Virus record (IMG/VR): IMGVR_UViG_3300021963_000034 | Coordinates: 64,001-128,000 of that record | Reading direction: 5' to 3' (one strand) | Length of the DNA stretch: 64,000 bases | DNA from: a virus | Part shown: positions 11,501-62,678 of the stretch, piece after piece | Numbering within the stretch: the stretch's first letter is position 1 | Layout of the letters: each line of letters opens with the position of its first letter | Notes under the pieces: generated by a model | The model's input: only the letters and a program-made list of their open reading frames with translations | The model's database searches: none | What the model was told of the DNA's origin: nothing | Made by a program: the position numbers and the translations under genes

Positions 11501-13432
11501 ATTGAAGGTCAATCTTTATACTTAGATAATAACACTTCAAATACAAATGGAGCAACCGTTAATTATACAATGAACTGGGGTGATGGATCAACGAATGATT
11601 CTATTGCAAATAATACTGCTGCTGGCGGCGCAGATGTTTCTGCTTCAAGACTACAACATACTTGGTCGGATGGAACAAATAGTTCTACAAGTAGAGATAC
11701 ACTTACTTTAACCTTAAATGCACATAATACTGCAGACCCTGCTGTTATTCCTGCTAACGGAACTGCATTATTAAAAGTTTATGATGATGCTCCCACTGCA
11801 CCTGATGGATTAAGTAGTAAAACATTATCAAATGTTACCAGCACTGGAACAAGTCCAAGACTTGTTTCTGGATTTACTGATAATACTGGAGGTACTACAT
11901 TATCTGCTGGCAATGATGTCAATCGTATAACTGGAGGAACTGCCGAAGCTACAGCAACTGCTTCATTTGCTTATAATGCAAACAGTGGAACTCTTACAGC
12001 ACAGGTGAACGGGTCCTCTGATGGTTCTAGAGTATTGACTAGTGGAGATGATTCTGGAACTTATACAAGTCTAGTAATCACTGAAGAAAGTGATTATCAG
12101 TTATTGAATTCTTCTGGTTCAACTACTACCTTTGCAGCAAGTATCTATTATCCTGGACTGTATAAAGGATTTAAGGCAAAAGTTTCAAAAGCAGTTTCTG
12201 CACTAAATGTTGGTGTGAATAGTATGAGACTGCTTCATAGTGTTACTGGTAACACAAACGCAGTGCAGTTTGTTAAGGATGATGTAACTTCTACACCTGT
12301 TGTAAGTATTTCAACTGCAACACTTACAGAAAACGTTGCTGGTACTTATCGCTATGTTTCTGGTATTCCTTATTACAACAGTGGTTCTCCATCTCTTACT
12401 TTATCTGGACTGACTGTTACAAACCTTACAGGACAAACATATACTAACCAATCCGATATTGTTGAAGTTGATACTGGTACAAACCAAGAGGGAACTTCCA
12501 GTGCAGCTACAACAGATAGTGATTATACATATTCTCAAATTAACGGTCCTTCAAGTATGTTAAGTGGTGGGATACCCATTGCTAACGTTGGTGTTTCTTC
12601 TCCTTACGCTACCGGAAGTCTGACTGTTCCAATCACATCCTCAAGTGTAAGAACTGTCGATCGAGTAAGAGTACGTGCTAAGAATGTAAATGGAACTAGT
12701 AGCTATACAAGTGATATTTCTACTAATATTCAAGTTCATACTGCAGCGCAGAGTGGAATTAGTGAAATTTCAATAGCAGTTCCTTCTGGACTTGGTGATG
12801 GAACTTATACTGATAATGGAAAGAGAATTTATGATTTTGGCCCTGGAGTTACTACAACAACTCCTTCTTATAATGGAGCAACTAATTTCTATACTAACAA
12901 TCCATATTCTGAATCATCTTCTCCAGCAGGAATTACTACAACAGCAGAAGCAGTTGTTAGATTGGGTGCTATCACTCACAATCAAGTGAATTATTCTGCT
13001 GGATATCTTCCAGTCGGTCCAGATTTTTCATCTGGAAGAAGTGGAACTCAGTATTTTACTTTTGCATTTAGAAGAAGAGTTGTTGCTAACTTTGATATTA
13101 ACATTACAAGTTCAACTGGTGTTGCTGGTGTTTGGATTGCTGCTCCAGGAACAAGCATAGATACTACAAGTGGATTAAATGGTTGGTTAAGAGCAGATAC
13201 TGCTTATGGAGGTTCTGGAGTTCCTGGTAGTGGGCCGGGTGGAAATGGTTCTGATGGATGTGCTTTCACTAATGGAGATAGAATTCTTACATCAACATCT
13301 TTAAGTGGTGGTTATACTATGACATTAGGTAGCGAAAACATGAGTAATGCTACTGGTAATGTTGTTCTTATAAGAATTGCTTTGAACTCAGGGCAATCCG
13401 TAACAAGTCTTAGTATAGGAGTTGCAGCGTAA
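8579..13432 (+). CDS. tail-fibre-like protein with C-terminal PKD-like module
   Basis: TTG start after GGGGAG; repeated [11 protein letters not shown] fibre motifs; YDVDWGDG and MNWGDG PKD-like motifs. Confidence 0.8.
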   Translation: MAINKNFVVKHGLEVNTNLILAKAETGRIGIGTTNPSSRFNVYNTSESKVVVESLEQEASIVIDSGITSTSYIEFKQDGTLKSNITFDSANSDSLEINSRTNKNVVIASGGGEVGIGTTNPSALFQVGPGPSSVVITNSSGIGSVGIGTVTPTSNLHVVGTTLLIGDTIQTSGSVGISTRNPIQRFQIGTRNDFVPAVSVAGSIGISTDIITGIDTSGIFVGYELVGITTIVSVGTTVTSIGSGTVGIGTTTLNTTSSLSGVSFTFGFRDDSKVFVVTSDAKTGIGTTNPTSKLHVVGDTLVTGVSTFVGFSTFNNDVYVAGLSTFASNVHLLDNKKLYLGDGNDLEIYHSGTDSYIKDAGTGNLIINSNNVQIKNAADNETLASFIENGQVELYYDNSKKFETIGTGITITGDTFTNQLSVSGVSTFVNGTVFIGSGTTTGTELQTLQVTGGVYVSENIGIGTTRPTSKLQVVGTSLVTGIATFKDRVIFDSKNSIQIPAGTTAERDSVGTAVTGQIRYNTEYSTFEGFGPGGSWGSLGGVRDVDGNTYIVPETAPGANENTLFFVTDGTEKVQINPVGNVGIATTNPTSKLHVVGNTLITGVSTFNDNVVIAGELRGPANFIIDPAAVGDNTGAVRIRGDLYVDGTQFQVNSSTIELADLRVGIATTVGTNLLLDGGGIGIGSTNILKSFTYNYSSDALKSSENLDLASGKVYKIDGTELLSSNQVTVPNANISGVSTLSNTVVGGATTQLVVNGDTRITGILTIGSSSVTLNGTTNAINVGTGLTLTSNGINATGIVTASTFYGTGGFLTLGAPDDGALTSSGALNTLSSSSKIVNSIDDLNELAFNIIRNTAVTNVDFSSNSVAGGSPLSITLSVTSSGNANRYDVDWGDGTTTSDYSSASIPHTYTQPAGGQFSISLVAKNNTGVGAGSSYSTSKSSYITVYTPNPTVSFDLYRTSTGGSVLSGNDLYVIEGQSLYLDNNTSNTNGATVNYTMNWGDGSTNDSIANNTAAGGADVSASRLQHTWSDGTNSSTSRDTLTLTLNAHNTADPAVIPANGTALLKVYDDAPTAPDGLSSKTLSNVTSTGTSPRLVSGFTDNTGGTTLSAGNDVNRITGGTAEATATASFAYNANSGTLTAQVNGSSDGSRVLTSGDDSGTYTSLVITEESDYQLLNSSGSTTTFAASIYYPGLYKGFKAKVSKAVSALNVGVNSMRLLHSVTGNTNAVQFVKDDVTSTPVVSISTATLTENVAGTYRYVSGIPYYNSGSPSLTLSGLTVTNLTGQTYTNQSDIVEVDTGTNQEGTSSAATTDSDYTYSQINGPSSMLSGGIPIANVGVSSPYATGSLTVPITSSSVRTVDRVRVRAKNVNGTSSYTSDISTNIQVHTAAQSGISEISIAVPSGLGDGTYTDNGKRIYDFGPGVTTTTPSYNGATNFYTNNPYSESSSPAGITTTAEAVVRLGAITHNQVNYSAGYLPVGPDFSSGRSGTQYFTFAFRRRVVANFDINITSSTGVAGVWIAAPGTSIDTTSGLNGWLRADTAYGGSGVPGSGPGGNGSDGCAFTNGDRILTSTSLSGGYTMTLGSENMSNATGNVVLIRIALNSGQSVTSLSIGVAA

Positions 13433-13433
13433 A

Positions 13434-16106
13434 ATGGCTATTTCAAACGATCAGAAGATAGACTATCTCTGGAAAAAAATTGGTTATGGTAGAGCGAAGA
13501 CTGATACTGCAGCGATTAAGGATGCAGTAAACGAATCAATCTCAAGTGCTTTATTGTTGAGAGGTGATAACGTCTGGGCTCAATCAAATTTAATACCAAC
13601 GACTATTCCCGGTAGCAGTACATCAGTAGTTACTTTATATCCAACATCACTACCCGTCGAATGTACTGCAGATACTACTTCTTCCACAAATAGAACTTGG
13701 AAAACAAACATTACCGATTGGATTCCGCCAGAAATTGGTTCTACTTATCTTGTGAAGGTATACGTTCATACATCAGGCAATGCTGCAACTGCTGCTGCAT
13801 CTGGAACTCAATTAGTCGCTGCGGGTTCTGGTAATAATGATGAGTGGTTCTTCGACTATCAATCAGGAACTTTAAACTTTATTGGAACAAACCTTCCAAG
13901 TGGAGTTAATTTTACTGGCAAGAGTGTTTATATTAGTGGTGCAGTTTATAGTGGAATTAAAGGAGTTCCTGCTGTAGGTTCTGCAAATACCTTTACAAAT
14001 TTAGACTTAACCGGAAACTTAAATGTATCTGGAGTTTCCACATTTGCAGGTGGTATTCGAGGTATTGGCATTCAGTCCGGAAGTGTCAATATAGCAACAG
14101 GGATTATTACTGCGTTAAATTTTGTTGGTTCTGGTAATTCCATTTCATATAATGCAGGAACTAAAGTTGTTGATATTAGTATTGGTGGAGGAAATTGGGA
14201 GTATGAAAATCCAACAAATACCTATCAAAGTGATATTTACCGCTTGAATGGAAATGTTGGCATAGGAACCATAGACCCAACATCAAAACTTGATGTTCGC
14301 GGAAATGTCAATGTTTCTGGAATTGTTACCGCTACTGTTTTTGTTGGTGATGGTTCTGGACTGACTGGCATTACTGCATCTGGATCAGGTATTGTTATTA
14401 AAGATTCTGGATCTCTTGTAGGCACTGCAGGCACAATAGATTTTGGCGATAATTTAACAGTTTCTACAATATCTGCTGGAGTAGTTACTGTCACTTCTTC
14501 TGGCGGTGGAGGATCTTCCCAATGGGAGACAACTGCAGCAGGTATTCATACATTATCTAACGTCGGCATAGGAACCACAAATCCAACAGCAAAACTTCAG
14601 GTTAATGGAAATATAAATTTAAATTATGGAAGCTCAACTACAGCGTCATCTATAACTTGGTCCACCAGTGGCACTGCAAATGTTCTTTTAAAAACTTTTG
14701 GAACATCTAACTCTAATACTTCTATGGTATGGAATAGTGGAAATCTTATTTCCAATCCAACATCTACAAATAGTGTATATATTGGTGCATGGGCATCACC
14801 TAATGCATCAGGAACAAGTAATGTTAGCATTGGATCAGGTTGTGGATACTTACTATCAACTGGGGCTAGCAATGTATTTGTTGGTCAGGGTGCAGCATAT
14901 TTTACAACTGGTTCTAATAATACATTTCTCGGTAGTCAATCTGGAGGTGTAGTTACTAGTGGAAGTAATAATACAATATTAGGTGGGTTTAATGGTAATT
15001 CAGGTGGTTTAGATATAAGAACATCTAATAATAATGTTGTAATTGCTGATGGTAGTGGTAATATAAGATTATATGCAAACTCAACTGGAAATATTGGTAT
15101 AGGAACCACAAATCCAACATCAACCTTTACTGTTGTAGGAAACGCTTTAATATCTGGAGTAACAACTTCCGGTGGATATAACGCAACCACAGGAAATGAT
15201 TATAAAATCAATGAAACTTCAGTTCTTAATGCAACAACTCTAGGTTCTGGAGTTGTTAACTCTTCTCTAACTTCTGTTGGAACTCTAACTTCTCTAAATG
15301 TATCTGGAACAACAACAGCAAATTCTTTTGTAAAGACTGGTGGAACTTCAAATCAATTCTTAAAGGCAGATGGTTCAATTGATACTAATACTTATCTAAC
15401 TTCAGCACTACAAAATGTTGTTGAAGATACTACACCACAACTTGGTGGAAATTTAGACCTTAATAGTAAAAATATTACCGGTACTGGTGATGTTAATATT
15501 ACTGGTGTCGTTACTGCTACTTCATTCTCTGGTTCTGGTGCAAATTTAACTTCTCTAGATGCTTCTAATATTTCTTCGGGAATAGTATCAACTGCTAGAC
15601 TGGCATCAGGAACCGCAGATTCAACGACATATTTAAGAGGAGACCAAACTTGGGCAAGTATTAGTGGCGGTGGTGCAACTCTAAGTAATGACACCACAAC
15701 AGACGCATCTTATTATCCAACATTTTCCAGTGCAACTTCCGGAACATATTCAACTGCTTATGTGTCTGATACGAAATGTACTTTCAATCCATCAACAGGC
15801 ACATTATCAGCGACTCAATTTACATCACTATCGGATAAAACTCAAAAGACCAATATTAGACTCATAGATAATTCAATTGAACTTGTGAAACAACTTGAAG
15901 GAGTTCGTTATGATTGGATAAATAATCAAAAACCTTCAATTGGTGTGATTGCACAAGATATTGAAAAAGTACTTCCAGAAGTAGTTGAAACAAATAGTAA
16001 TGGTTTGAAATCAGTCTCTTATGGAAATATAGTTGGTGTATTAATTGAAGCAATTAAAGAACAACAAATTCGCATTGAAGAGTTGGAGAAAAAGTTAAAT
16101 GCCTAA
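13434..16106 (+). CDS. tail fibre with C-terminal peptidase S74 intramolecular chaperone
   Basis: Fibre motifs, adhesin-head-like N-x-x-(I/V/L)G repeats, [46 protein letters not shown]. Confidence 0.85.
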
Positions 16107-17307
16107 TCAATTTAATTCGCCAGAAGGAGATTTAGAGAATTATTTTGTGAGTGAATATTGGTTAATTGACCAGTGGGTTGGTGATACCTTATGGAATTGG
16201 GGTCGTAATACTCAAGGACAAATAGGAGACAATACAGCAACCCAAAGAAACACTCCAGTCACAACACTTGCTGGTGGCGCAAATTGGAAACAAGTTAGTA
16301 CTGGAAGTAATGGTAGTCATACAGTAGCAATAAAAACGGATGGAACTCTATGGAATTGGGGTAATAATTTTAGTGGAGGACTGGGAGTCAATTCACCATC
16401 CAATAGATCCACTCCAGTCACAACATTCGCAGGAGGAACCAACTGGAAACAAGTTGCTAGTGGAGGAGGCCATACAGTAGCAATCAAAACTGATGGAACC
16501 CTATGGACTTGGGGTTCTAATTCTTCTGGACAATTAGGAACCAATGGACCAACAGGTTTGGGAGTAGCAAAAAGCACTCCAGTCACCACATTCGCAGGAG
16601 GAACTAACTGGAAACAAGTAAGTGCAGGAAATCTACATACATTAGCAATCAAAACTGATGGAACCTTATGGACTTGGGGTGATAATTATTATGGACAACT
16701 AGGAGACAATACAACAACCAATAGATGCACTCCAGTCACCACATTCGCAGGAGGAACCAATTGGAAACAAGTTGCTGGTGGAAGAGATCATACAGCAGCA
16801 ATCAAAACCGATGGAACCTTATGGACTTGTGGTCGTAATGCTTATGGAGGTTTAGGAGACAATACAACAACCAATAGATCCACTCCAGTCACCACATTCG
16901 CAGGAGGAACCAATTGGAAACAAGTTGCTGGTGGAGGTTCTTATACAGCAGCAATCAAAACTGATGGAACCTTATGGACTTGGGGTCTTACTTCTGCTGG
17001 TCAACTAGGAATCAATAGATCAGGTTTTGGAATAGCAATAACCACTCCAGTCACAACATTCGCTGGAGGAACCAACTGGAAACAAGTTGCTGGTGGAAAC
17101 GGTCATATAGCAGCAATCAAGACTGATGGAACCTTATGGACTTGGGGAAGTAATTTTGCTGGACAACTAGGAAACAATACAACAACCACTAGTTCCACTC
17201 CAGTTACAACATTCGCAGGAGGAACCAACTGGAAACAAGTTTCTGGTGGATATGGACATACAGTAGCAGTCACATCAGGAACAGATCCTACCTTCTTTAT
17301 TTCATAA
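16099..17307 (+). CDS. RCC1/BLIP-II repeat beta-propeller protein 1 (7 repeats)
   Basis: 7 x LWTWG.N..GQLG...[24 protein letters not shown]; start overlaps the fibre stop. Confidence 0.9.
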
Positions 17308-17324
17308 ATATTTAAAAAAGACAT

Positions 17325-17969
17325 ATGTACGCACTCGTTAATGGTCAAGAATTAAGATTAGGACCAATTGCATTCAACTATAGAATGATTAATGATGAAC
17401 TAGAAGAACTTGAAGTTGATTTTAGAGTAAAATCTTCTGATTATCAATCAGTTCCTATTTCGGTTACTGATGATATTAAAATTCTTCCTGCGAGATATGA
17501 TAATCCAGAGTATGACCCAAGATTTGAAGGTCTTTCAAATGTATCTCACGAAATCACTGAAACTGAAGTAATTTTTAGACACGATAAGGGTTTTAAATCA
17601 CTTCAACAAATTAAGGATGAATATAAGGCAGCAGTAAAACCAGAAAGACAAAGAAAAGAAAACACTACAATTTCTCTAACTGTAAAAGATACTGAAATTA
17701 CAGTATCAACAAGTAGAGAAAGTAGAATTGAATTGATGTCTAAACTTCTTGGTAATGAAGGTCCTTATAATTTCAAGTTTGCGAATGGTGTATGGGTAGA
17801 AGTGACTAAAGTAGATCTTCAAACTATTATTGCTGCAATTGATGTAAAAGTTCAAGAAGCATATGATTGGGAACTTGCAAAACTTCAAGAAATTGATGCT
17901 TGTGAAACAAAAGAAGCAGTTTATGAAGTTGAAATTACTCCACCTCCAGCAGAAAATCCTGTAGTCTGA
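17325..17969 (+). CDS. DUF4376-like tail-fibre assembly/accessory protein
   Basis: C-terminal [35 protein letters not shown] pattern; late promoter cataaata at 17303. Confidence 0.6.
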
Positions 17970-17970
17970 T

Positions 17971-19185
17971 ATGCCAAATCCAACCACTAATTTTAAAGAT
18001 GATTATGGTACTGATTTAGGTAATAAATTAATTACCAAAGAATATTTGATGACTGTTTATCCGCAGATTGGTAATCAATTAATCACTCCGGAATTGTGGG
18101 TTTGGGGGCTTAATTCTTATGGACAACTAGGAGACAATACAACATCCAATAGACGCACTCCAGTCACAACACTGGCAGGAGGGTCCAACTGGAAACAAGT
18201 TTCTGGTGGTGGTAATTATATAGCAGCAATCAAAACCGATGGAACTCTATGGACTTGGGGTCGTAATAATCAAGGACAACTAGGAGACAATACAACAACC
18301 AATAGATCCACTCCAGTCACCACATTCGCTGGAGGATCCAATTGGAAACAAGTTGGTGGTGGAAGTTTTCATACAACAGCAATCAAAACCGATGGAACCC
18401 TATGGACTTGGGGTTTTAATTATTATGGACAACTAGGAGACAATACAACAACCAATAGATCCACTCCAGTCACCACATTCGCGGGAGGATCCAATTGGAA
18501 ACAAGTTTCTGGTTCTTTTCAAGGTAATATTACAGCAGCAATCAAAACTGATGGAACTCTATGGACTTGGGGTCGTAATAATCAAGGACAACTAGGAGAC
18601 AATACAACAACCAATAGATCCACTCCAGTCACCACATTCGCTGGAGGATCCAATTGGAAACAAGTTTCTTGTGGAGGTTATTTCATATCAGCAATCAAAA
18701 CAGATGGAACCCTATGGACTTGGGGTTTTAATTCTTCTGGACAACTAGGAGACAATACAACAACCACTAGATCCACTCCAGTCACAACATTCGCTGGAGG
18801 ATCCAATTGGAAACAAGTTTCTGGTGCATCTAGTCATACAGCAGCAATCAAAACTGATGGAACTCTATGGATTTGGGGTGCTGGTACTACTGGACGACTA
18901 GGAAACAATACAACAACCACTAGTTCCACTCCAGTTACAACATTCGCAGGAGGAACCAACTGGAAACAAGTTTTTGCTGGAGTAAATAATACAGTAGCAA
19001 TCAAAACAGATGGAACCTTATGGACTTGGGGTTCTAATTCTTATGGACAAGTAGGAACCAATAATACAACCACTAGTTCCATTCCAGTCACAACATTCGC
19101 AGGAGGAACCAACTGGAAACAAGTTGCTGGTGGTGGTAATCATATAACAGCAATCAAAACCTCTGACGATTTACAAGGAATCTAA
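17971..19185 (+). CDS. RCC1/BLIP-II repeat beta-propeller protein 2 (7 repeats)
   Basis: Same repeat scaffold, distinct ~40 aa N-terminus. Confidence 0.9.
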
Positions 19186-19209
19186 ATACTTTCAAATACA
19201 ATATTCTAT

Positions 19210-20559
19210 ATGAATCCACTTGAATTGGTTGCAAAGACCTTATATTCATTCAAAGAACAGCAACTAACTTTTGAATTACTTGATGCCTTTGGAAAACAAG
19301 CACAAGTATTTTCACAGTATGATGAAATTGCAAAGATATTTTTTGAACTTAAAAACTTCTCCAAAGCAATTGAATATGGAGAAAAATCTCTTAAACTAGC
19401 ACAAACAAAAGAGGAAAAATATACCACCTCTATGAATTTGATTAATGCTTATAATCAATCAAATCATCCAGAGAAGTCTATTACTCAAATTGAAAAGTGC
19501 AAAAAGATTAATCCGCAAGATACTGAACTTCTTCTGGAAGAAACCTTTGCATATTCTGCACTCAATCAAAAAGAGAAATCAGAAAAACTTCTCTTCAATC
19601 TTCTTCAAAGAAAACTACCAGAAGAGATTGAACGAAAAGCATATCATAATCTATCCGGACATTATTTCCGTAAGGATGATATTCATACAGGACTTCAACA
19701 CTTTCTCAAAGCAGGAGAAGTAGAAGCATATAAAAATCAAAAGCATCCTGATTTTGAGAAGTGGGATGGAACAATTACACCAGGAAGAACTGTAATTATT
19801 GATAATCAATGTGGTGCTGGTGATGAAGTCATTCATATTCGGTTTATGAAACACCTCAAAGACTTGGGAATGAAACCAATTTGGAGTTCTACTCGTAGAG
19901 AACTTGTAGAACTCTTCAAACATAATGGTTATGATGCCGTTTGTATTTGGGACAAACCAGAGTTTCCAAAAGATGCCTGTTGGGTTTATGGTCTTGCACT
20001 TCCTTATTATCTCAATCTCGAATTGAAAGATATTGGAAGAGAACCATATCTCCAAACACTCCCAGAGTATGATAAGAAGTGGGAATGGATGAAAGAAGAT
20101 ACTGGACATAAAGTTGGTATATTCTGGGCATCCAGTTCTGGTTTTGAACAGAACTCTTTCCGTTCGGTGGAACTCAAAGATTATATGAGTGTTCTTGGAA
20201 ACAAAGGATATTCTCTGTATTCACTTCAAACTCATACTGATAACAAAGATGCAAATGATTATCCAGAAATCAAACAATCACTATCAGTTCCTAATAGAGA
20301 GTTTGCTGATACATTCTCAATCATTAAGAACCTGGATTTGGTGGTGACTTCTTGTAGTTTTGTCGCTCACGTTGCAGCATCATTAGGTAAAGAAGTTTGT
20401 GTCTTTGTTCCAATTATGGAATATTATGTTTGGACTTCTTCTACTGGAAAGTGTATGTGGTATGGAGATAACGTTCATCTCTTCCGCCAAAAGAAACCAA
20501 GAACTTGGGATGCACCCATCAAAGAGTTTTGGGAGTTTATGAATGATAGAAGAGTATAA
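19210..20559 (+). CDS. TPR + GT-B (GT9-like) glycosyltransferase
   Basis: Helical TPR-like N-half; WDG..QCGAGDEVIHIRF, VGIFWAS, FADTFSIIKNLDLVVTSCSFVAHVAASLGK, WYG..HLFRQ. Confidence 0.8.
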   Translation: MNPLELVAKTLYSFKEQQLTFELLDAFGKQAQVFSQYDEIAKIFFELKNFSKAIEYGEKSLKLAQTKEEKYTTSMNLINAYNQSNHPEKSITQIEKCKKINPQDTELLLEETFAYSALNQKEKSEKLLFNLLQRKLPEEIERKAYHNLSGHYFRKDDIHTGLQHFLKAGEVEAYKNQKHPDFEKWDGTITPGRTVIIDNQCGAGDEVIHIRFMKHLKDLGMKPIWSSTRRELVELFKHNGYDAVCIWDKPEFPKDACWVYGLALPYYLNLELKDIGREPYLQTLPEYDKKWEWMKEDTGHKVGIFWASSSGFEQNSFRSVELKDYMSVLGNKGYSLYSLQTHTDNKDANDYPEIKQSLSVPNREFADTFSIIKNLDLVVTSCSFVAHVAASLGKEVCVFVPIMEYYVWTSSTGKCMWYGDNVHLFRQKKPRTWDAPIKEFWEFMNDRRV

Positions 20560-21001
20560 TTTATCCTTTCTCAACCTCAATTCCATCAAGAACAAACTAC
20601 TACAAATACAAACTGCTTCTCACGGACTTGTAACAAAAGGTGTTTCCACCTATAATCACGGAATGCCTACTTTGATGTATCCAGAACTGACTGGATTAAA
20701 AAATATTTTCAAACAATATGTTAGAATATATTGTAGAAAGTATGAGATTCCACCTTTAAAGTTTATCAATAGTTGGTTTAATATTTCACAACCAGGAAAT
20801 AAACTCAAAGCACATAAGCACGAAGAAAGTGTTGTGAGTGGAGCATTTTATATTTCTGGTGCAACTCCACTTATCTTTCCAGATACATCAATCAAACCAT
20901 ATCCTGGTTTGTTAGTCATCTTTTCAAGTGATTTAGTTCATTACACAGAAGAAGAAACAGAAGAAAGAATTATTATTAGTTTTAATACAGACTACCTATG
21001 A
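20543..21001 (+). CDS. putative 2OG-Fe(II) oxygenase (TIGR02466-like)
   Basis: SWFNI..AHKH..VSGAFYI..LVIFSSDLVH..RIIISFN. Confidence 0.78.
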   Translation: MIEEYNLSFLNLNSIKNKLLQIQTASHGLVTKGVSTYNHGMPTLMYPELTGLKNIFKQYVRIYCRKYEIPPLKFINSWFNISQPGNKLKAHKHEESVVSGAFYISGATPLIFPDTSIKPYPGLLVIFSSDLVHYTEEETEERIIISFNTDYL

Positions 21002-21681
21002 GATTTCATACTTTTTATACCAAAAATCTTTCAGAACAACTGATAGAAGACCATAAGAAAGTCTGTAATCATATTGGCATTGATGTGACTTATCATATTC
21101 AAGATGCAATAGATGATTATGATACTCTTTATACCGCTCACGGAAAGTTTATGACTTCTGTAATGGAGCAGGAAGAGGTTGCTTGTTTTCTTGATATTGA
21201 TTGTCTTCCGCATAATAAAGAACTTCTGGAAAGAGCATACAACTGGGCAATAGAAAATAAATCTTTTGTCGGAAATGCTCAAAACATTTCTCATACGCAA
21301 ATGAGAAATCATATCTATGCTGCTGCTTCTTGTTTAATTGTAACGAAAGATGCCTGGAATACTTTGGGTAATCCAGACTTTTCCTGGTTTATGCAGAATG
21401 AAGTTCAAATAGATACTGCACAACTTCTCACATTAAGAGCAGACCAAATTGGAATGCCCTATCAATTAATGTATCCTGTTGGTTATGATGGTCCAGAAGA
21501 ATATAAACTTTCTGGATATGGAATATATGGAACAGGAACTTTATACCCAGCAACTTGGCATTATTTTAGAATCAGTAAGTTCAAGGATCAAATACCAGAC
21601 CTTTGGACAACTCGTGTAAATAATATATTAGAAGGTCAAAAGATTATTCCAAATTATTCATCGTGTTTTTATGAACTATAA
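20998..21681 (+). CDS. putative GT-A-like glycosyltransferase
   Basis: CFLDIDCLP DxD motif; gene context. Confidence 0.55.
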   Translation: MRFHTFYTKNLSEQLIEDHKKVCNHIGIDVTYHIQDAIDDYDTLYTAHGKFMTSVMEQEEVACFLDIDCLPHNKELLERAYNWAIENKSFVGNAQNISHTQMRNHIYAAASCLIVTKDAWNTLGNPDFSWFMQNEVQIDTAQLLTLRADQIGMPYQLMYPVGYDGPEEYKLSGYGIYGTGTLYPATWHYFRISKFKDQIPDLWTTRVNNILEGQKIIPNYSSCFYEL

Positions 21682-22438
21682 GTTTTTGTTTTTAGTTGGG
21701 TCTGCAATTAATCATTTTAAAGAGGATGATTTGAGTGCTTTTAAAGCAGAAGAAAGATTTCAACAGACATTAGATACTATTCAGTCAATTAAGAATAAAG
21801 TTCCAGATGCTTATATTTTAATCTACGAAGGCTCTGAAACTCCTATCAAAGATGAGTATAAAGATATTCTGAGACAGAAATCTGATTTGTTTATTCAGTG
21901 TGGTAGTGACCCTTATATGAAATCTTTGTATGAGAACATTCACAAAGACCCACCAAAGTTCACATTTGTAAAATCTATGCTTGAGTGTAGATGTTTACAG
22001 ATTGTTCTGAATCATATGAGACAGCACAATATCTTTAATGATGTCACAAGAGTGTTTAAGTTGACTGGTCGGTATACTCTTAATGATAACTTTGACATCA
22101 ATGACTACAAGAGTAAATTCTTAATCAATAAGTATGTGATGAAATATTATGACTACAAAGAAAGATTTGAGGAGATGGATGATATCTATGTTTCTCTCTT
22201 TGGATGTAAAGGAACAACCGTAACTGGATTGTGGTCCTTTGACCGATTCTTATTCAATGATATTTTTAATGTTCTTCAGAAGAGTTTTGAATATATGGAA
22301 AGAGCAATTCAGTTAACTTGTGGTATGGACATTGAACATTCTTTCTATCACTTTATCAAGAGAGATGATATCATAAATGTTCCTATTCTTGGTGTTGATG
22401 TAGTTAAAGGTATGGATGGAGACAGATTTTCATTATGA
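21671..22438 (+). CDS. hypothetical protein, glycan-modification associated
   Basis: ERFQQTLDTIQSI..VFKLTGRY..DIEH; coupled within the cluster. Confidence 0.5.
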   Translation: MNYKFLFLVGSAINHFKEDDLSAFKAEERFQQTLDTIQSIKNKVPDAYILIYEGSETPIKDEYKDILRQKSDLFIQCGSDPYMKSLYENIHKDPPKFTFVKSMLECRCLQIVLNHMRQHNIFNDVTRVFKLTGRYTLNDNFDINDYKSKFLINKYVMKYYDYKERFEEMDDIYVSLFGCKGTTVTGLWSFDRFLFNDIFNVLQKSFEYMERAIQLTCGMDIEHSFYHFIKRDDIINVPILGVDVVKGMDGDRFSL

Positions 22439-23091
22439 AACTCGCAATCTTTTATCATACTTTTCAAAATGAAATATCTGCTTTCATTTATCAACAACAA
22501 ATCAATCGTCTTTATGTGACTGGATTAATGAATGCTGTTGATTATATGCATATTGGTGTAAATGGAAATAACGAGTTATTCAATGTTCCATCTAAAGCAA
22601 AAGTTGTATACAATCAAAATCAAAAAGAAGAAACAGAAACATTGATTGCATTAAAAGATTTTGCATACGAAAATCCAGATTATAAAATTTTATATTTTCA
22701 CACTAAAGGTGCAAGTAAGGGAACTTTGATTGCAAATGCTTGGAGATTGATGATGGAGTATTTTGTAATTGATAAGTGGAAAGAGTGTGTGGAAATGTTG
22801 GATGAATATGATTGTGTTGGTTCAAATCTAAATCCCGTGGGAGAAACTTTATGGAGTGATGGCACAACAACTATACCAGTAGAAGGAACTTATAATTTTA
22901 CTGGAAATTTCTGGTGGGCAACTGCGAAACACATTCAATCATTAGATCATAAATTTTTGACAAGTGATTATCGTATAGATAGAGAACTATGGATTGGAAG
23001 TAATCCAAACTCAAATCCCGGAACCATTTATCAACCGGGAGTATATGAGTCCTATGAACATTTCTACATGGAGGAAGATTATGTTTCGTAA
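22435..23091 (+). CDS. hypothetical protein, glycosyltransferase-associated domain
   Basis: ILYFHTKG..WRLMMEYF..YDCVG..GNFWWA..ELWIG. Confidence 0.5.
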   Translation: MKLAIFYHTFQNEISAFIYQQQINRLYVTGLMNAVDYMHIGVNGNNELFNVPSKAKVVYNQNQKEETETLIALKDFAYENPDYKILYFHTKGASKGTLIANAWRLMMEYFVIDKWKECVEMLDEYDCVGSNLNPVGETLWSDGTTTIPVEGTYNFTGNFWWATAKHIQSLDHKFLTSDYRIDRELWIGSNPNSNPGTIYQPGVYESYEHFYMEEDYVS

Positions 23092-23452
23092 TTGTGGAGA
23101 ATGTACTGCTTGTTGCACTTGGTTACAAGGTTCTGCTTATGGATATGAGTTTGGTGGTGGAAAGTCTTGTAAGTTTTTATGTGAGACTGGGTGTAGTGTT
23201 CATAAGGCAAGACCAAAATTATGTGAGGGATATTTTTGTGCTTGGGCTCAAGAACTCATAACAGAAGAAATGAGACCTGATAAATGTGGTGTTCTTGTTT
23301 CTGTTGAAAATAATGAGAACGGACAATATCTCAAATTGGTTTCTACTCAAGAAGAAATAAATAAAGATATATTAGAATATTTTAGAAATTGGAGTAGTAT
23401 AATGAATACTCCTGTGATTTATTCAAACAATAATTCCTGGGAAGTCCTCTAA
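23081..23452 (+). CDS. YkgJ-like CxxCxxCC metal-binding protein
   Basis: CGECTACC..CKFL..GCSVHKARPKLC..YFCAW; GGAGG upstream of ATG 23081. Confidence 0.75.
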   Translation: MFRNCGECTACCTWLQGSAYGYEFGGGKSCKFLCETGCSVHKARPKLCEGYFCAWAQELITEEMRPDKCGVLVSVENNENGQYLKLVSTQEEINKDILEYFRNWSSIMNTPVIYSNNNSWEVL

Positions 23453-24627
23453 TGCCTACTTTTTACAATTACACAGAGAATGGTGCAGTATATTCTTTTG
23501 ATGATGTCTTTGTTCCTGCTGATGCTTTTAGGCAGGGGAACTTATGGACTTGGGGTAATAATTCTTCTGGACGACTAGGAGACAATACAGCACCCAATAG
23601 ATCCACTCCAGTCACAACACTTGCTGGCGGAGCAAACTGGAAACAAGTTTTTGCTGGAGTAAATAATACAGTAGCAATCAAAACAGATGGAACCCTATGG
23701 ACTTGGGGTTATAATATTGGTGGACAACTAGGAGACAATACAACAACTGATAGATCCACTCCAGTCACCACATTCGCAGGAGGAACTAACTGGAAACAAG
23801 TAAGTGCAGGAAATCTACATACATTAGCAATCAAAACTGATGGAACCTTATGGACTTGGGGGAGTAATGCTTATGGACAACTAGGAGACAATACATCAAC
23901 CAATAGATCCACTCCAGTCACTACATTCGCAGGAGGAACCAACTGGAAACAAGTTGCTTGTGGTCAAATTCATACAGCAGCAATTAAAACCGATGGAACC
24001 TTATGGACTTGGGGTCGTAATCTTAGTGGGCAAGTAGGAGACAATACAACAACCAGTAGATTCACTCCAGTCACCACATTCGCAGGAGGAACTAACTGGA
24101 AACAAGTAAGTGCAGGAAGTCTACATACATTAGCAATCAAAACTGATGGAACCTTATGGACTTGGGGTCGTAATAATAGTGGACAACTAGGAGACAATGC
24201 AGCAACTGATAGATCCACTCCAGTAACAACATTCGCTGGAGGAAATAATTGGAAACAAGTTGCTTTTAGTGCTAATGGATATCATACTGCAGCAATTAAA
24301 ACCGATGGAACCTTATGGACTTGGGGTCGTAATCTTAGTGGACAACTAGGAGACAATGCAGCAACTGATAGATCCACTCCAGTAACAACATTCGCAGGAG
24401 GAACTAACTGGAAACAAGTTGCTAGTGCTGGCAATTATACAGCAGCAGTCAAAACTGATGGAACCTTATGGACTTGGGGTCGTAATAGTAGTGGACAACT
24501 AGGAGACAATACAACAACCAATAGATCCACTCCAGTAACAACATTCGCAGGAGGAAATAATTGGAAACAAGTTGCTAGTGGATATTCTCATACAGCAGCA
24601 ACAACCTACATAGATGATTATCAGTAA
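23452..24627 (+). CDS. RCC1/BLIP-II repeat beta-propeller protein 3 (7 repeats)
   Basis: Same repeat scaffold, third distinct N-terminus. Confidence 0.9.
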   Translation: MPTFYNYTENGAVYSFDDVFVPADAFRQGNLWTWGNNSSGRLGDNTAPNRSTPVTTLAGGANWKQVFAGVNNTVAIKTDGTLWTWGYNIGGQLGDNTTTDRSTPVTTFAGGTNWKQVSAGNLHTLAIKTDGTLWTWGSNAYGQLGDNTSTNRSTPVTTFAGGTNWKQVACGQIHTAAIKTDGTLWTWGRNLSGQVGDNTTTSRFTPVTTFAGGTNWKQVSAGSLHTLAIKTDGTLWTWGRNNSGQLGDNAATDRSTPVTTFAGGNNWKQVAFSANGYHTAAIKTDGTLWTWGRNLSGQLGDNAATDRSTPVTTFAGGTNWKQVASAGNYTAAVKTDGTLWTWGRNSSGQLGDNTTTNRSTPVTTFAGGNNWKQVASGYSHTAATTYIDDYQ

Positions 24628-24644
24628 AACATTATTTCTTAATT

Positions 24645-25427
24645 ATGAAAACATTATTTTTCCTTTCTGGTCTTCCAAGATCAGGTTCTACTTTACTTGG
24701 ATCAATTCTTTCACAACATCCAAAACTCCAAGCAACTCCAACATCACCACTTGCCGATTTGCTCTGTTGGATTGATGAGGGTTTTTCAAAGATAGACTTA
24801 CAATATACTTACGATAAACAACAGATACAATACAATACATATAATTCAATACTTGAAAACTTCTACAATCACATAGAGAAACCTTGCATTCTTGATAAGC
24901 ATCGTGGTTGGTGTAAGAATGTATCTTCTATTGAAAAGTTTCTCAAACAGAAACCAAAAATCATTGCAACAAACAGAAGAATAAGTGAAGTTCTTGCTTC
25001 TTATATTCTACTCATTCAAAGAAATAATGAAGCAGATAATTTTGTAGATGCACATTTGAGAAGAGAGGGAAAGCTCATTACCACAGATAATCGTATTGAG
25101 TGTTTATGGAAGAATTATGTTTGCGATCCTTATGAGAGTTTGGTTTATGGTTTGACTAATTATAGGGACAATATTCATCTTGTAGATTATAATAATCTTA
25201 CACAAGACCCAGAACAAGAACTTAAAAAGATTTATGAGTTTCTAGAAATAGAAAATCATTCACACGATTTTTCTAATATCTTTAATACTTGTGCCGAAGA
25301 AAAGGACCACGAATGGGGTATTGATAATCTTCATCAAATTCGCACCAAACTTCAAAGAACTTCACCACCACCAGAAGAAGTGATTGGTGAAGAAAATGTA
25401 AAACTTTATGATAAATTTAATCTATGA
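24645..25427 (+). CDS. sulfotransferase family protein
   Basis: SGLPRSGSTLLGSILSQHP PAPS-binding loop; DKHRGW; VDYNNLTQDPEQELKKIYEFL. Confidence 0.88.
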   Translation: MKTLFFLSGLPRSGSTLLGSILSQHPKLQATPTSPLADLLCWIDEGFSKIDLQYTYDKQQIQYNTYNSILENFYNHIEKPCILDKHRGWCKNVSSIEKFLKQKPKIIATNRRISEVLASYILLIQRNNEADNFVDAHLRREGKLITTDNRIECLWKNYVCDPYESLVYGLTNYRDNIHLVDYNNLTQDPEQELKKIYEFLEIENHSHDFSNIFNTCAEEKDHEWGIDNLHQIRTKLQRTSPPPEEVIGEENVKLYDKFNL

Positions 25428-26110
25428 TTGAAGTATTTTTAAGACACTGCTACACATCCAAAGTAAATCTTTCGGGAGCAAATCGTCCAGAGTGGTGGGA
25501 TAAAGAAAAGGTATTTCAAAATTTCAAGAATACCCTCAATCCAGAAACCACTAACTATACAATCATCTTTGATGAGTGTTATGGAAAGCAGAAAGATACA
25601 TTTCTCAAAAATGAGAATGCAGTAACTATTAATTGTGGTAAAGAAAGTGAAAGTTTCTGTAAGACACTGGACCACATTCTTTCACAAGACTTTGATGATG
25701 ATACAATCATTTATTTCCTTGAAGATGATTATGTACATCGTCCAAACTGGGATAGAGCCCTCATAGATGGATTTACTCTACCTGTTCAGTATGTAACCTT
25801 ATATGATCACGGAGATAAGTATCAGGAGATGTATAAGGACTTTATGACGAAAGTTCTTGCAACAAAATATTCTCACTGGATGCCAACTCCATCAACTACA
25901 AATACCTTTGCAATGAAGTTCAAGACACTCAAAGAAGATAAAGAAGTTCATAAACACTTCTCAACTGGTTTTGAACCTTCCGCAGATCACGGTAAATTTT
26001 TAGAACTACATAAGAGAGGAAGAAATTTAATTTCAAGTATTCCTGGTTATTCTACACACGCACATAAAGACTTTTTATCACCTTGTATTGATTGGAGCAC
26101 ATATCTATGA
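25424..26110 (+). CDS. putative GT-A glycosyltransferase
   Basis: IIYFLEDDYVH motif; IPGYSTH; context. Confidence 0.6.
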   Translation: MIEVFLRHCYTSKVNLSGANRPEWWDKEKVFQNFKNTLNPETTNYTIIFDECYGKQKDTFLKNENAVTINCGKESESFCKTLDHILSQDFDDDTIIYFLEDDYVHRPNWDRALIDGFTLPVQYVTLYDHGDKYQEMYKDFMTKVLATKYSHWMPTPSTTNTFAMKFKTLKEDKEVHKHFSTGFEPSADHGKFLELHKRGRNLISSIPGYSTHAHKDFLSPCIDWSTYL

Positions 26111-27072
26111 GAGTAACACTATATGCTATTGCAAAGAACGAAGAAAAGAATATTAAAAAATTTCTTAAAAACTCAAAGAAGTTTGACGATGTAGTTGTAG
26201 TTGATACTGGAAGCACAGACAACACCGTTCAACTACTCAAAGATGCTGGCATTAAAGTCTATGAGCATCCACAAACAAGAGAAGAGTTTGATTTTTCAGT
26301 AGCACGAAATCAGGCACTTTCTTATGTAGAAACTGATTGGGCTTTTGCACTTGACTTTAATGAAGATGTAGATGAGTTTTATCCAGAAGGATTTGGTGTA
26401 ATTGCGGATGAGTTCACTACTTTTAATCATTTGAGATTTGATGATAATGGAAAGGATGAACCAGTCCAATCAAATGAGGTTCACACAAGGTTTCATAGGA
26501 CAAAGAATTATACTTGGATCAATGCAGTTCACGAAGTTCCAAACTTTGTTCCAACAGAAGAATATTTAAATCCATCAAGTGTAGATACAACGATTAAGAT
26601 TACTAAAAAAATTCATAAGACCATAGACAAAGAACTTTTTTACTTCTCAATTTGTGAAAGAGAACACAAGAAAGATCCATCCAACTGGTATTGGATTTGG
26701 TTTATTTTCAATCATTATTTTAATGTGAATAATACAGAGAAAGCACTTGAATATGGTCAAGAATTTTTGAATGTTTCTAAACCATATTTTGATAGTTTTA
26801 GAATCATTGCTTTTATTCGTTGCAGTCAAATTCTACTTTCTATCGGAGATACTCAAAGAGGAATGAATTATGCTTTCCATGCATTGAGTGAAGCAATGAA
26901 TATGGGAGGACATCATTTAACCCAAGCCTTTAGTTATTTCTTTGAACTTTCTAAAATGATGAATAATTCAGATTTAATTGTTTTTGCAACTGCATTCAAT
27001 CCAGAAACTTTAACATCTGAAGAAAGAATAAAAGCAATTAAAAATTTATATAATAATATTGAAAGGGATTGA
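26107..27072 (+). CDS. GT2 glycosyltransferase with TPR-like C-terminus
   Basis: YAIAKNEEKNI..VVVVDTGSTDNT..FDFSVARNQAL..ALDFNE..W..AVHE. Confidence 0.85.
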   Translation: MRVTLYAIAKNEEKNIKKFLKNSKKFDDVVVVDTGSTDNTVQLLKDAGIKVYEHPQTREEFDFSVARNQALSYVETDWAFALDFNEDVDEFYPEGFGVIADEFTTFNHLRFDDNGKDEPVQSNEVHTRFHRTKNYTWINAVHEVPNFVPTEEYLNPSSVDTTIKITKKIHKTIDKELFYFSICEREHKKDPSNWYWIWFIFNHYFNVNNTEKALEYGQEFLNVSKPYFDSFRIIAFIRCSQILLSIGDTQRGMNYAFHALSEAMNMGGHHLTQAFSYFFELSKMMNNSDLIVFATAFNPETLTSEERIKAIKNLYNNIERD

Positions 27073-27074
27073 AT

Positions 27075-27944
27075 ATGAAATCAATATGTTTTTTCACAAA
27101 TGGTCATAATGGAGATATTGTTCACAGCAAATCTTTCATTCAAGAAATAACAAAACAACTTGATATACCTTGTCTCTATCATCATCATAATAATTTTAAA
27201 GTTAGTCAAGATCTTTTAGCGATTTCAACACAAATTGCTCCAAATAATTATTATGATAAGTTCATAGAAACTCCAAGTATTTTTTTCGTTAACACTTGGT
27301 TATGGCCATATCTGCTTGATAAATCTTTTGAAGATGTAAATCTCGAAACCAACTATGCGATTTATAAAAATATTTGTGAGGTTATAAATTCTAAGTTTAA
27401 TACAAATATAAAATTAAAAGAAATTGAAAATTACTTTCCTTTTATAAATTTTGATTTAGTTCAAAGAGAAAATATAAATGACTATGTTTTAAATAATAAA
27501 AATAAGAAAGTTTTATTGTGTAATGGTCCTTGTTTATCTGGACAATCTTCTTATAATGAAGATATGTCATCTATTATTGAAAATCTATCTCTGGAATATA
27601 AAAATATTACATTTATAGCAACTCAAAAATTTAATACTACCACAAATAATATTCATTTTACTGATGATATTATTAAAATAAAAGGGTGTGACTTGAATGA
27701 AATTGGATATCTATCTACTTTTTGTAGTTTGATTGTTGGTAAAAATTCAGGACCATTTTGTTATTCTACAACCAAAGATAATTATAATGATCCCGATAAA
27801 ATTTTTTATGCATTTGGGCAAAGGAAGGGTGATTGTTTTCATGGAAATATCAAAATAAAAGCAAAATTTTATTTTGATGGAGCATCTAATGATGTTATGT
27901 TGTATAATTCTATAAATTCTATTATCGAAAAAAATTTAATATGA
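27075..27944 (+). CDS. putative GT-B-like glycosyltransferase
   Basis: HNGDI..DLNEIGYLSTFCSLIVGKNSGP; visibly more AT-rich than neighbours. Confidence 0.5.
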   Translation: MKSICFFTNGHNGDIVHSKSFIQEITKQLDIPCLYHHHNNFKVSQDLLAISTQIAPNNYYDKFIETPSIFFVNTWLWPYLLDKSFEDVNLETNYAIYKNICEVINSKFNTNIKLKEIENYFPFINFDLVQRENINDYVLNNKNKKVLLCNGPCLSGQSSYNEDMSSIIENLSLEYKNITFIATQKFNTTTNNIHFTDDIIKIKGCDLNEIGYLSTFCSLIVGKNSGPFCYSTTKDNYNDPDKIFYAFGQRKGDCFHGNIKIKAKFYFDGASNDVMLYNSINSIIEKNLI

Positions 27945-59229: not shown

Positions 59230-59934
59230 ATGAACTATCTAAAGGTTTATTGTAATCTTATCAGGAAAGCAGAGAACAGAACTCCTCCTGAAGGTTATAC
59301 AGAAAATCACCATACATTTCCAAAAAGTATTTTTGGAAAGAATAATAGAATTGTCGTGCTTACTGGAAGAGAACATTACATAGCACACGCATTACTTGAA
59401 AAAGCATTTATAAAGAGATATGGATTGAATAATATAAAAACGCAAAAAATGATAAAAGCATTTTGGTGTATGAATAATCAAAAGACAAAAAATACATATT
59501 TGAATTCTCATTTATATGAAAGTTCAAGAATAAGATTTATTGAAAATATAAAAGGAGAAAATCACTACTGGTATGGAAAAAAACATTCCCAAAAAACAAG
59601 AGAAAGAATGAAAGAAGCACAAAAAGGTGAAAATCATCCAATGTATGGTAAAACTCATACTGAAGAGACAAGAGAAAAAATGAGTAAATCTCATTTAGGA
59701 AAACCATCATCAAAGGGAATGTTGGGTAAAAAACAAACTGAAGAAGCAAAACAAAAAATAAGAGAAAGTAAAGAAGTCAAATCTTTTTCAGTAATAAGTC
59801 CTACTGGTGAAATAATTCATTCTAAAAATACTAAACAATTTTGTAGAGATAATAATTTAGATAAAGGGCACTTTTCTCAAGTTTTGAACGGAAAACGACC
59901 AATTCATAAAGGATTTCGTCTCTATACTGGATAA
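59230..59934 (+). CDS. HNH homing endonuclease with NUMOD3 repeats
   Basis: YLKVYCNLI..ENHHTFPKSIFG.N..VVLTGREHYIAHALL; GKKHS/GKTHTEET repeats. Confidence 0.87.
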   Translation: MNYLKVYCNLIRKAENRTPPEGYTENHHTFPKSIFGKNNRIVVLTGREHYIAHALLEKAFIKRYGLNNIKTQKMIKAFWCMNNQKTKNTYLNSHLYESSRIRFIENIKGENHYWYGKKHSQKTRERMKEAQKGENHPMYGKTHTEETREKMSKSHLGKPSSKGMLGKKQTEEAKQKIRESKEVKSFSVISPTGEIIHSKNTKQFCRDNNLDKGHFSQVLNGKRPIHKGFRLYTG

Positions 59935-61958: not shown

Positions 61959-62678
61959 ATGAAAGACCCTAACAGGTTTTATACTTACGCATACCTGCGA
62001 GAAGATAGAACACCTTACTATGTTGGTAAAGGTGAAGGAAGAAGATTGTATAAAAAAGGAAAGTGTGAAGTTAAACCTCCAAAAGATAAATCAAGAGTAA
62101 TCTTTTTAAAAGAAAATCTAACAGAAGAAGAAGCATTTAAGCACGAAATCTATATGATTGATGTGCTTGGTAGAAAAGATGTTGGAACTGGAATATTAAG
62201 AAATAGAACTAATGGTGGTGATGGATTAAGTGGATATGTTCCCACACCAGAAACTATTCTAAAATTAAAAAATAGAGAGTGTAGTGAAAAAACAAGAGAA
62301 AAAATAAGAAAATCAAACAAAAAAGTTTGGGAAAATGAAGAATTAAGAAAAAGAATGAGTGATATGAAGAAAGGAATACCTATTCCAGAAGAAAGAAAGA
62401 AAAAGATTTCTCTGGGGCATATGGGTAAAGTTGTGAGTGAAGAAACAAAACAAAAATTGAGAGAGTATAATGTAAAATATTTGTATGAAATAAAAGACAC
62501 ACAAGGGAACATTTACACAACAGATAATCTCAATTATTTCTGTAAAATGAATGGACTTGATACTGCTGCGATGCAGAGAGTTTGTTATGGAAAACAAAAA
62601 TCACACACTCCAAAAAGAAAAGATAGAGTTCCTAATGTAGTGGGGTGGACGGTTCGCATACTGGAACATATCACTTGA
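61959..62678 (+). CDS. GIY-YIG-type homing endonuclease, paralogue of 1006-1572
   Basis: FYTYAYLREDRTPYYVGKG..NLTEEEAFKHEIYMI..GRKDVGTGILRNRTNGGDG; SEETK repeats. Confidence 0.88.
   Translation: MKDPNRFYTYAYLREDRTPYYVGKGEGRRLYKKGKCEVKPPKDKSRVIFLKENLTEEEAFKHEIYMIDVLGRKDVGTGILRNRTNGGDGLSGYVPTPETILKLKNRECSEKTREKIRKSNKKVWENEELRKRMSDMKKGIPIPEERKKKISLGHMGKVVSEETKQKLREYNVKYLYEIKDTQGNIYTTDNLNYFCKMNGLDTAAMQRVCYGKQKSHTPKRKDRVPNVVGWTVRILEHIT

Follow-up and report, generated by a model that had tools for sequence, protein, structure and literature searches.

Hypervariable loop codons in the RCC1 propeller genes of a freshwater cyanophage are likely the product of selection and exchange among blades, without a diversity-generating retroelement

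How do the RCC1 propeller genes of a freshwater cyanophage come to carry codons whose first two bases vary from blade to blade while the third stays the same? The three genes in question, here referred to as A, B, and C, lie in a stretch of 64,000 nucleotides (the window) that corresponds to bases 64001 to 128000 of a 153.5-kb viral contig (IMG/VR record IMGVR_UViG_3300021963_000034, rated 72% complete). The source of the contig is a T4-like freshwater cyanophage whose nearest named relative, and a close one, is Synechococcus phage S-SRM01 (Kyanoviridae, Serangoonvirus, 240.8 kb). An initial annotation, made from the sequence alone, attributed the recurrent NNT and NNC codons (N being any base) either to strong diversifying selection on recently homogenized repeats or to a targeted mutagenesis of adenines acting in trans, as in a diversity-generating retroelement (DGR). 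We find that the codon pattern is real and that its cause is ordinary: the window genes are members of a recurrent, fast-evolving family of RCC1 propellers in the tail modules of freshwater cyanophages.

All three genes are on the plus strand and encode seven-bladed RCC1-type beta-propellers. Gene A (positions 16099 to 17307; 402 amino acids) has blades starting at 16186, 16345, 16498, 16663, 16816, 16969, and 17131; gene B (17971 to 19185; 404 amino acids) has blades starting at 18091, 18244, 18397, 18556, 18709, 18862, and 19015; and gene C (23452 to 24627; 391 amino acids) has blades starting at 23539, 23692, 23845, 23998, 24151, 24310, and 24463. Genes A, B, and C score 214.6, 240.4, and 250.5 bits, respectively, with the Pfam RCC1 profile (PF00415; cutoff, 21.7) and 278.5, 336, and 319.5 bits with WD40_RLD (PF25390; cutoff, 150), and they match phrog_4219 with E values of 1.1e-49, 1.1e-63, and 4.2e-51. 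Gene A, which also matches phrog_7220, is the ortholog of S-SRM01 gp335 and has the same C-terminal tail; gene C is the ortholog of gp344. A codon-by-codon alignment resolves seven units of about 51 codons in each gene, giving 21 blades, all of which descend from a single 51-codon unit. Codons are numbered here within that unit, alignment columns 22, 23, 28, 29, 30 to 47, and 50 to 60 being codons 19, 20, 21, 22, 23 to 40, and 41 to 51. In the second blade of gene B (B2), for example, the hypervariable codons are codon 7 (18262 to 18264), codons 9 and 10 (18268 to 18273), and codons 41 and 42 (18364 to 18369).

The third-base pattern described in the initial annotation is present throughout the window. 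Codon 7, which follows TGG-GGN, is NNT in all 21 blades and takes exactly the nine codons originally reported. The codons after it had been described as nearly all NNT except CAA, and this is what we find: codon 9 is NNT in 21 of 21 blades, and codon 10 is NNT in 18 and CAA in 3. Codon 22, which precedes ACT-CCA, and codon 15, which follows GQLG, are each NNC in every blade, with the same seven and five codons, respectively, that had been listed. A constant third base is not, however, a special signature of the variable codons. It is invariant in 5 of the 12 hypervariable columns and in 14 of the 39 other columns, two of these 14 being tryptophan codons. Variable codons ending in A keep their third base too: codon 18 is ACA, GCA, CCA, or TCA (NCA in 21/21 blades), and codon 45 is GCA, GTA, TTA, ACA, or TCA (NNA in 21/21 blades). 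The minimal numbers of changes at the first, second, and third positions are 51, 42, and 20 over 19 variable columns and 14, 12, and 36 over the 32 other columns, so that third bases have changed about once per column in both classes alike.

We then considered the wider family, for which the window and 58 related loci supplied 264 distinct units of 51 codons. Across this set the third base is not fixed: T ends codons 7, 9, and 10 in 209, 234, and 218 of the 264 units, and codon 15 ends in T in 121 and in C in 125. Parsimony assigns 47, 29, 38, 62, and 73 third-base changes to codons 7, 9, 10, 41, and 42, within the range of 10 to 88 for the other non-tryptophan codons, and third-base entropy averages 1.05 bits in variable columns, compared with 0.97 bits in the others. 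The rate of change at the third base is thus that of background silent change, and it is greatly exceeded at the first two bases. Considering that T ends 46% of all codons in this genome and 73 to 84% of its two-fold pyrimidine-ending codons, T is the ending that would be expected of the ancestral codons.

A DGR, or some other mutator specific for adenines, could in principle be encoded at another site in the phage or in its host and have produced such codons by rewriting them from an AAY template (Y being a pyrimidine). DGR targets often lie in phage tail-fiber modules, and the RCC1 genes do sit in one; NNT and NNC are the forms that the variable codons of the window take; family-wide, AAT ranks in the top three codons at positions 7, 9, 10, 41, and 42, where K, E, Q, M, and W are depleted; and the changes from A inferred at hypervariable first and second bases go almost evenly to T, G, and C (157, 144, and 129). 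The adenines themselves do not behave as this mechanism would require. Single differences between blades had been thought to fall often at A, but the counts do not bear this out: measured against the consensus unit, the number of deviating cells per site is 2.47 for A, 3.42 for C, 2.35 for G, and 2.61 for T. At fourfold-degenerate third positions, A deviates in 30 of 321 cases (9.3%), compared with 20 of 130 for T (15.4%) and 19 of 96 for C (19.8%). A mutator of adenines should turn silent A sites into the most variable class, yet these sites vary least. Invariant scaffold codons also contain A, as the initial annotation had cautioned: AAA (codon 35), CAA (36), ACA (27), and AAT (16) are constant in 21 of 21 blades. 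Family-wide, 39% of parsimony changes at hypervariable first and second bases are from A, compared with 34% at other codons, and this difference is an effect of composition and not a signature. The variation is, moreover, spread over seven blades in each of three RCC1-fold genes and is not gathered in one C-terminal region.

Neither a reverse transcriptase nor a template repeat was found where we searched for them. The profile RVT_1, which was positive in control genomes, had no match at E values up to 10 in the 153.5-kb contig, in five related records (three of them rated 100% complete), or in the complete S-SRM01 genome. An nhmmer profile of the unit matched only the 21 coding blades in the 153.5 kb, the next match having an E value of 0.78, and in S-SRM01 all 21 unit matches fall inside gp335, gp337, and gp344, with no template-like copy outside these genes. 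Among the best 80 of 594 bacterial relatives (one genome per species), which were considered as a source of a host template, identity is at most 53% and none is cyanobacterial. A search of the literature, in which supplements were not covered, found no description of hypervariable RCC1 genes in cyanophages or of RCC1 as a DGR target.

The genes are also stable across samples, as judged from assembled consensus sequences. Twenty-one distinct RCC1 gene sequences occur with 100% identity in two to eight different IMG/VR contigs, and in the two related loci L016 and L030 the blades are identical, the 18 differences between these loci being confined to the first 99 nucleotides. Four public runs (X1 to X4) were examined as Logan contigs, in which the repeat region is in short pieces and each run has 110 to 195 records that fit at two places. 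Across the full 8.7 kb, the differences in these runs are mostly transitions, and those from A make up 5 of 43, 28 of 116, 35 of 135, and 48 of 160 places (40 of 269 rows listed), which is not above the A content of about one third. In the same contigs we observed joints between blades of different RCC1 genes (within 16204 to 24439), for example from 17254 to 23930 in three runs. These may be assembly artifacts rather than recombinant genomes, because the sides of the joints are 21 to 61 letters long, mostly under 40, and so are near the word length of the assembler. With no reverse transcriptase or template copy in the sequences searched, no adenine excess, and genes that are stable across contigs, we reject a DGR as the source of the window's variable codons and regard any adenine-specific mutator, wherever encoded, as extremely improbable. 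Of the two causes first proposed, diversifying selection on homogenized repeats is supported by the nonsynonymous excess and the common tracts described below, and adenine mutagenesis in trans falls by the very observations that had been named in advance as able to refute it.

To what, then, do the variable codons owe their rate of change? Amino acid changes are concentrated in them. In the window, the 12 hypervariable codons have a nonsynonymous rate (dN) of 0.765, a value inflated by the choice of these columns for their variability, and a synonymous rate (dS) of 0.164, compared with a dN of 0.099 and a dS of 0.308 for the 39 other codons. Rates for the family were obtained as parsimony counts on a FastTree tree of the 264 distinct units. 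Measured against the global silent rate, the ratio of nonsynonymous to silent change (omega) at codons 7, 9, 10, 41, and 42 is 2.05, 2.25, 1.66, 2.15, and 2.03, on a tree built from 153-nucleotide units that recombine, and the nonsynonymous excess at these codons has P values of 8e-7, 2.6e-14, 0.014, 2e-4, and 0.024. Eleven orthologs of gene B vary at matching positions. Relative to S-SRM01, the RCC1 genes have a dS of 0.30 to 0.36 and a dN of 0.16 to 0.22, while seven neighboring genes have a dS of 0.45 to 1.29 and a dN of 0.036 to 0.27 (0.036 to 0.125 in six of the seven).

These rates might instead mean that the loop codons are unconstrained and drift neutrally, appearing fast only in comparison with a unit whose other sites, silent sites included, are slowed by conversion and selection. 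In comparison with S-SRM01, the RCC1 genes have a lower dS than any of the seven neighbors, so the denominator of omega may be depressed, and the variable loops tolerate insertions of one to five codons, which we see both in blades of the window and in gene B orthologs. At codons 7, 9, and 41, however, the reference for the excess was silent change within the codon itself (P = 8e-7, 2.6e-14, and 2e-4). Amino acid use at the hypervariable codons is also nonrandom: N, Y, S, R, F, and G are abundant there, and K, E, Q, M, and W are scarce. Codons 7, 9, 10, 41, and 42 are the most variable in the 264 units, which come from many phages. On this evidence we hold neutral drift to be unlikely. About five codons in each blade (7, 9, 10, 41, and 42), with up to twelve variable in the window, are probably under positive diversifying selection on a binding surface.

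Exact tracts shared between blades point to exchange as the second ingredient. A tract of 105 nucleotides running from A3 into A4 (16575 to 16679, plus strand) is identical to 23757 to 23861 (C2 into C3); it spans loop codons 38 to 45 and contains a run of 56 matching polymorphic sites. An exact-repeat scan also recovered a 117-nucleotide tract from the end of B1 into B2 (18238 to 18354, plus strand) that recurs at 18550 to 18666 (end of B3 into B4), and a 60-nucleotide tract from B6 into B7 (18958 to 19017, plus strand) is matched exactly at 23635 to 23694 (C1 into C2), the loop FAGVNNTV being present in both genes. Together with an exact tract of 77 nucleotides common to A7 and B6, three such tracts (105, 77, and 60 nucleotides) link different genes, and those of 105 and 60 nucleotides bring whole hypervariable loops into another gene. 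Runs of 33 to 59 matching polymorphic sites gave a permutation P value of about 5e-5 for four pairs, a post hoc figure that is uncorrected.

We also considered whether the loops of the family are drawn from a limited pool and merely reassorted. This candidate was set aside: in 1,067 units from 59 sources, loop 1 occurs as 411 distinct tetrapeptides and loop 3 likewise as 411 distinct strings. Of the 21 loop-3 strings in the window, just 2 recur in another locus, which indicates that most loop diversity arises anew in each lineage; within a genome, cassettes are nonetheless transferred from one paralog to another.

We propose the following explanation. The 21 blades would have arisen from one 51-codon unit, and tracts of tens to about 100 bases would have been copied among the blades and the three genes by ordinary homologous recombination or gene conversion, a process that could in part keep the scaffold, silent sites included, nearly uniform. 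About five codons per blade (7, 9, 10, 41, and 42), located in two loops, the one that follows the WG strand and the GxxHT loop, would take amino acid changes faster than silent change. Their first two bases would become scrambled, and the third base, changing at the low silent rate, would still display the ancestral letter, be it T, C, or A, according to the codon. No reverse transcriptase, template repeat, or adenine-specific mutator would be involved.

Besides the inflated dN of the window and the recombining units behind the omega tree, several results weigh against this explanation. Mean scaffold nucleotide identity within the window (0.908) barely surpasses that between the window and S-SRM01 (0.899), and shared descent, or selection acting on the DNA, may have contributed as much to the uniform scaffold as recent conversion has. 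T ends codons 7, 9, and 10 in more units than codon usage predicts (209 versus 137.5, 234 versus 153.2, and 218 versus 170.9 of 264). K, E, Q, M, and W make up 3 to 11% of residues at the hypervariable codons compared with 17.8% genome-wide, and amino acid entropy correlates with the pyrimidine-ending fraction (rho = 0.40; P = 0.005). The S-SRM01 paper, finally, contains no occurrence of RCC1 or "chromosome condensation."

With regard to the scaffold, strong concerted evolution within the genome was a candidate that the two identities (0.908 versus 0.899) do not clearly demonstrate for the window; at one related locus (L043), scaffold identity is 0.879 within and 0.74 to 0.81 between, and concerted evolution is clear. 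As a separate observation, the lowest dS of the region, considered together with these two identities for the window, suggests that something besides recent within-genome conversion may keep the scaffold DNA uniform. With regard to the third bases, the pyrimidine endings could be kept by second-order selection, as a stop-proof codon set that is diversified by point mutation and short-patch conversion without a retroelement. The attraction of this idea is that an NNY codon cannot turn into a stop codon through its first two bases and yet reaches 15 amino acids, the same logic as that of the AAY codons in DGR templates. A test of pyrimidine endings by column class was not significant (13 of 18 versus 14 of 30 columns; P = 0.13), and codon 4, which is not hypervariable, carries a similar excess of T. 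NNT ancestry followed by changes in the first and second bases, or a preference for certain amino acids at the binding face, would explain the T excess, and we consider selection for a stop-proof set to be unlikely. Overall, selected, exchange-prone RCC1 propeller loops that diversify by ordinary mutation, without a DGR, remain in our judgment the likely explanation.

Where the variable codons lie in the fold was considered with an AlphaFold2 model of gene B built on 11 orthologs, which is of moderate confidence (predicted template modeling score, 0.75; mean predicted local distance difference test score, 68). DSSP assigned four strands to each unit of the model, and in Foldseek comparisons it matched solved domains of HERC2 RLD, RCC1, and UVR8 with template modeling scores of 0.77 to 0.85; by sequence, UVR8 (4dnv) is the nearest solved chain (phmmer E value, 3.8e-47). 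The variable codons fall at the end of strand 1 and in loop 1 (7, 9, 10, and 15 to 22) and around loop 3 (38 to 43), while loops 2 (FAGGTN) and 4 (KTDG) are conserved. Since alternate loops of an antiparallel four-stranded blade share a face, the variable loops should, from the strand order in this model, lie on one face of the propeller. Codons 41 and 42 align with the W-R of the GWRHT motif of UVR8. We take this motif to lie at the UVR8 dimer interface.

Among known systems, the closest in mode of evolution is found in a fungus. In the het-d/het-e family of Podospora anserina (HNWD), WD40 repeats move from one to another both inside a gene and among members of the family, with positive selection acting on four surface residues of each repeat (Paoletti, Saupe, and Clave 2007; PMC1805685). 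The window shares with HNWD near-identical propeller repeats that are swapped within and between paralogs, a small number of selected codons, and the absence of a dedicated mutator. The two differ in fold (WD40 versus RCC1), in organism (fungus versus phage), and in setting (an allorecognition NOD-like receptor [NLR] versus a presumed virion protein); the fungal case may be aided by repeat-induced point mutation, which has no counterpart in the window, and its within-genome homogenization is the stronger. The likeness is an analogy of mode and not one of membership.

DGR targets provide the second comparison. Mtd of Bordetella phage BPP-1 is such a target, and, like the window genes (presumably, in their case), proteins of this kind bind ligands and are encoded in the tail region of a phage. 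They also combine a constant scaffold with hypervariable codons that have a pyrimidine third base and encode residues rich in N, Y, and S. Unlike them, the window has no reverse transcriptase, no template repeat, and no adenine targeting, and its variation lies in the RCC1 fold, over 21 blades in three genes, and is stable across samples.

RCC1-like virion proteins of large myoviruses form a third group. Coliphage W70 (gp237 to gp239, of phrog_4219; PMC11370258) and phage GAP32 (gp001) resemble the window in having several paralogous RCC1 proteins per genome, and phages 121Q and PBECO4 carry multicopy RCC1 arrays, according to the relevant passage on GAP32 (PMC5259590). The W70 and GAP32 proteins have been detected in particles and belong to phages of another host group; the passages on these proteins make no mention of hypervariable loops or blade exchange (PMC11370258, PMC5259590). 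Among propellers at large, the part of the survey by Pereira and Lupas (2022) that treats this group describes RCC1/BLIP-II as the third largest group of propellers with near-identical blades and includes viruses (PMC9218822). The window blades, with about 91% scaffold nucleotide identity, resemble the propellers amplified from single blades in that account, which covers amplification and differentiation in general and, in that part, does not describe site-specific hypervariability or phage tail modules (PMC9218822). UVR8 (4dnv), the RLD2 domain of HERC2 (7q40), and RCC1 (1a12) share the seven-bladed fold. They differ from the window in being eukaryotic signaling proteins with 22 to 29% identity and differentiated blades, without repeat uniformity or hypervariable loops.

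The genomic setting of the three genes is that of a tail module. The region from 16000 to 24700 is 82% identical in nucleotides to S-SRM01 and keeps its gene order, in synteny with gp334 to gp345. Directly upstream of gene A, an 894-amino-acid tail-fiber-like protein (13422 to 16106, plus strand) matches PHROG tail-fiber and baseplate families (for example, phrog_18186 at 1.4e-31 and phrog_19966 at 7e-23), and its stop is overlapped by the start of gene A by 8 nucleotides. Between genes A and B lies a DUF4376 protein (17325 to 17969, plus strand; Pfam PF14301, 4e-10) that matches phrog_10508, "tail fiber protein," at 6.5e-7. The interval between genes B and C encodes a weakly matching tetratricopeptide repeat protein, a 2-oxoglutarate-Fe(II) oxygenase (PF13759), and open reading frames (ORFs) without assignment, and a sulfotransferase (PF00685) and a glycosyltransferase (phrog_13126) lie 3' of gene C. 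With these enzymes, the stretch from 19210 to 27944 makes up a block of modification genes that lies partly between the RCC1 genes and partly beyond them. Relatives of the window RCC1 proteins are encoded in at least 316 IMG/VR stretches, and blade number differs among the related loci: of 153 RCC1 ORFs, 103 have 7 recognizable units, 28 have 6, and the remainder have 4, 5, 10, 11, 13, or 19. Between orthologs, S-SRM01 gp335 has 344 residues and 6 recognizable units, compared with 402 residues and 7 units for gene A.

Other features of the window were noted in passing. The tail-fiber-like protein upstream of gene A (13422 to 16106) and a protein of 1,440 residues at 35399 to 39721, which consists largely of collagen-like G-x-x repeats, end in much the same C-terminal module of about 90 residues (SLSD.TQKT.I.LI.N...GVRY.W), probably for fiber folding or attachment. 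Two large structural proteins, at 8579 to 13432 and 29184 to 32012, resemble each other closely over a long stretch that begins near GALNT..S.KIV.SIDDLNELAFNII.NTAVTNVDFS, and the pair forms a duplicated fiber or baseplate module with copies about 20 kb apart. The ORFs at 949 to 1572, 59230 to 59934, and 61959 to 62678 all have repeated GK.HSEETK.K motifs, and the first and last also have the N-terminal motif YTYAYLREDGTPYY.GKG.GRR in common; we take the three to resemble copies of a homing-endonuclease-type gene.

What the propellers do can be approached from this setting. The tail-fiber context and the precedent of other phages suggest that the variable face may bind a host surface structure during adsorption. 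According to the passage on the particles of coliphage W70, mass spectrometry detected three phrog_4219 RCC1 proteins in its virions (PMC11370258), and one RCC1 protein of phage GAP32 was identified as a structural protein in the corresponding passage on that phage (PMC5259590). The propellers might, on the other hand, diversify in the same way and bind a variable intracellular host protein, in counterdefense or takeover, or they might decorate the particle without host recognition. The adsorption role is drawn from context and precedent; PHROGs places the RCC1 families under "DNA, RNA and nucleotide metabolism," a category based on the name only; and the neighbors include the 2-oxoglutarate-Fe(II) oxygenase, the sulfotransferase, and the glycosyltransferase. 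Gene A, however, overlaps the stop of the tail-fiber-like gene, the DUF4376 gene with its "tail fiber" PHROG stands between genes A and B, and the phrog_4219 proteins of W70 are virion components. We therefore think it improbable that the propellers act inside the cell or serve only as decoration.

The codon pattern that raised the question is a plausible trap. A DGR-like appearance arises when a few codons of a young or homogenized repeat are under diversifying selection, and silent adenine sites offer a quick way to discriminate between a DGR and selection. For the phages themselves, the propeller family, which is widespread and evolves fast, is a candidate component of host recognition in freshwater T4-like cyanophages. 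Should the propellers turn out to serve in adsorption, their loops would lend themselves naturally as host-range markers in lake viromes.

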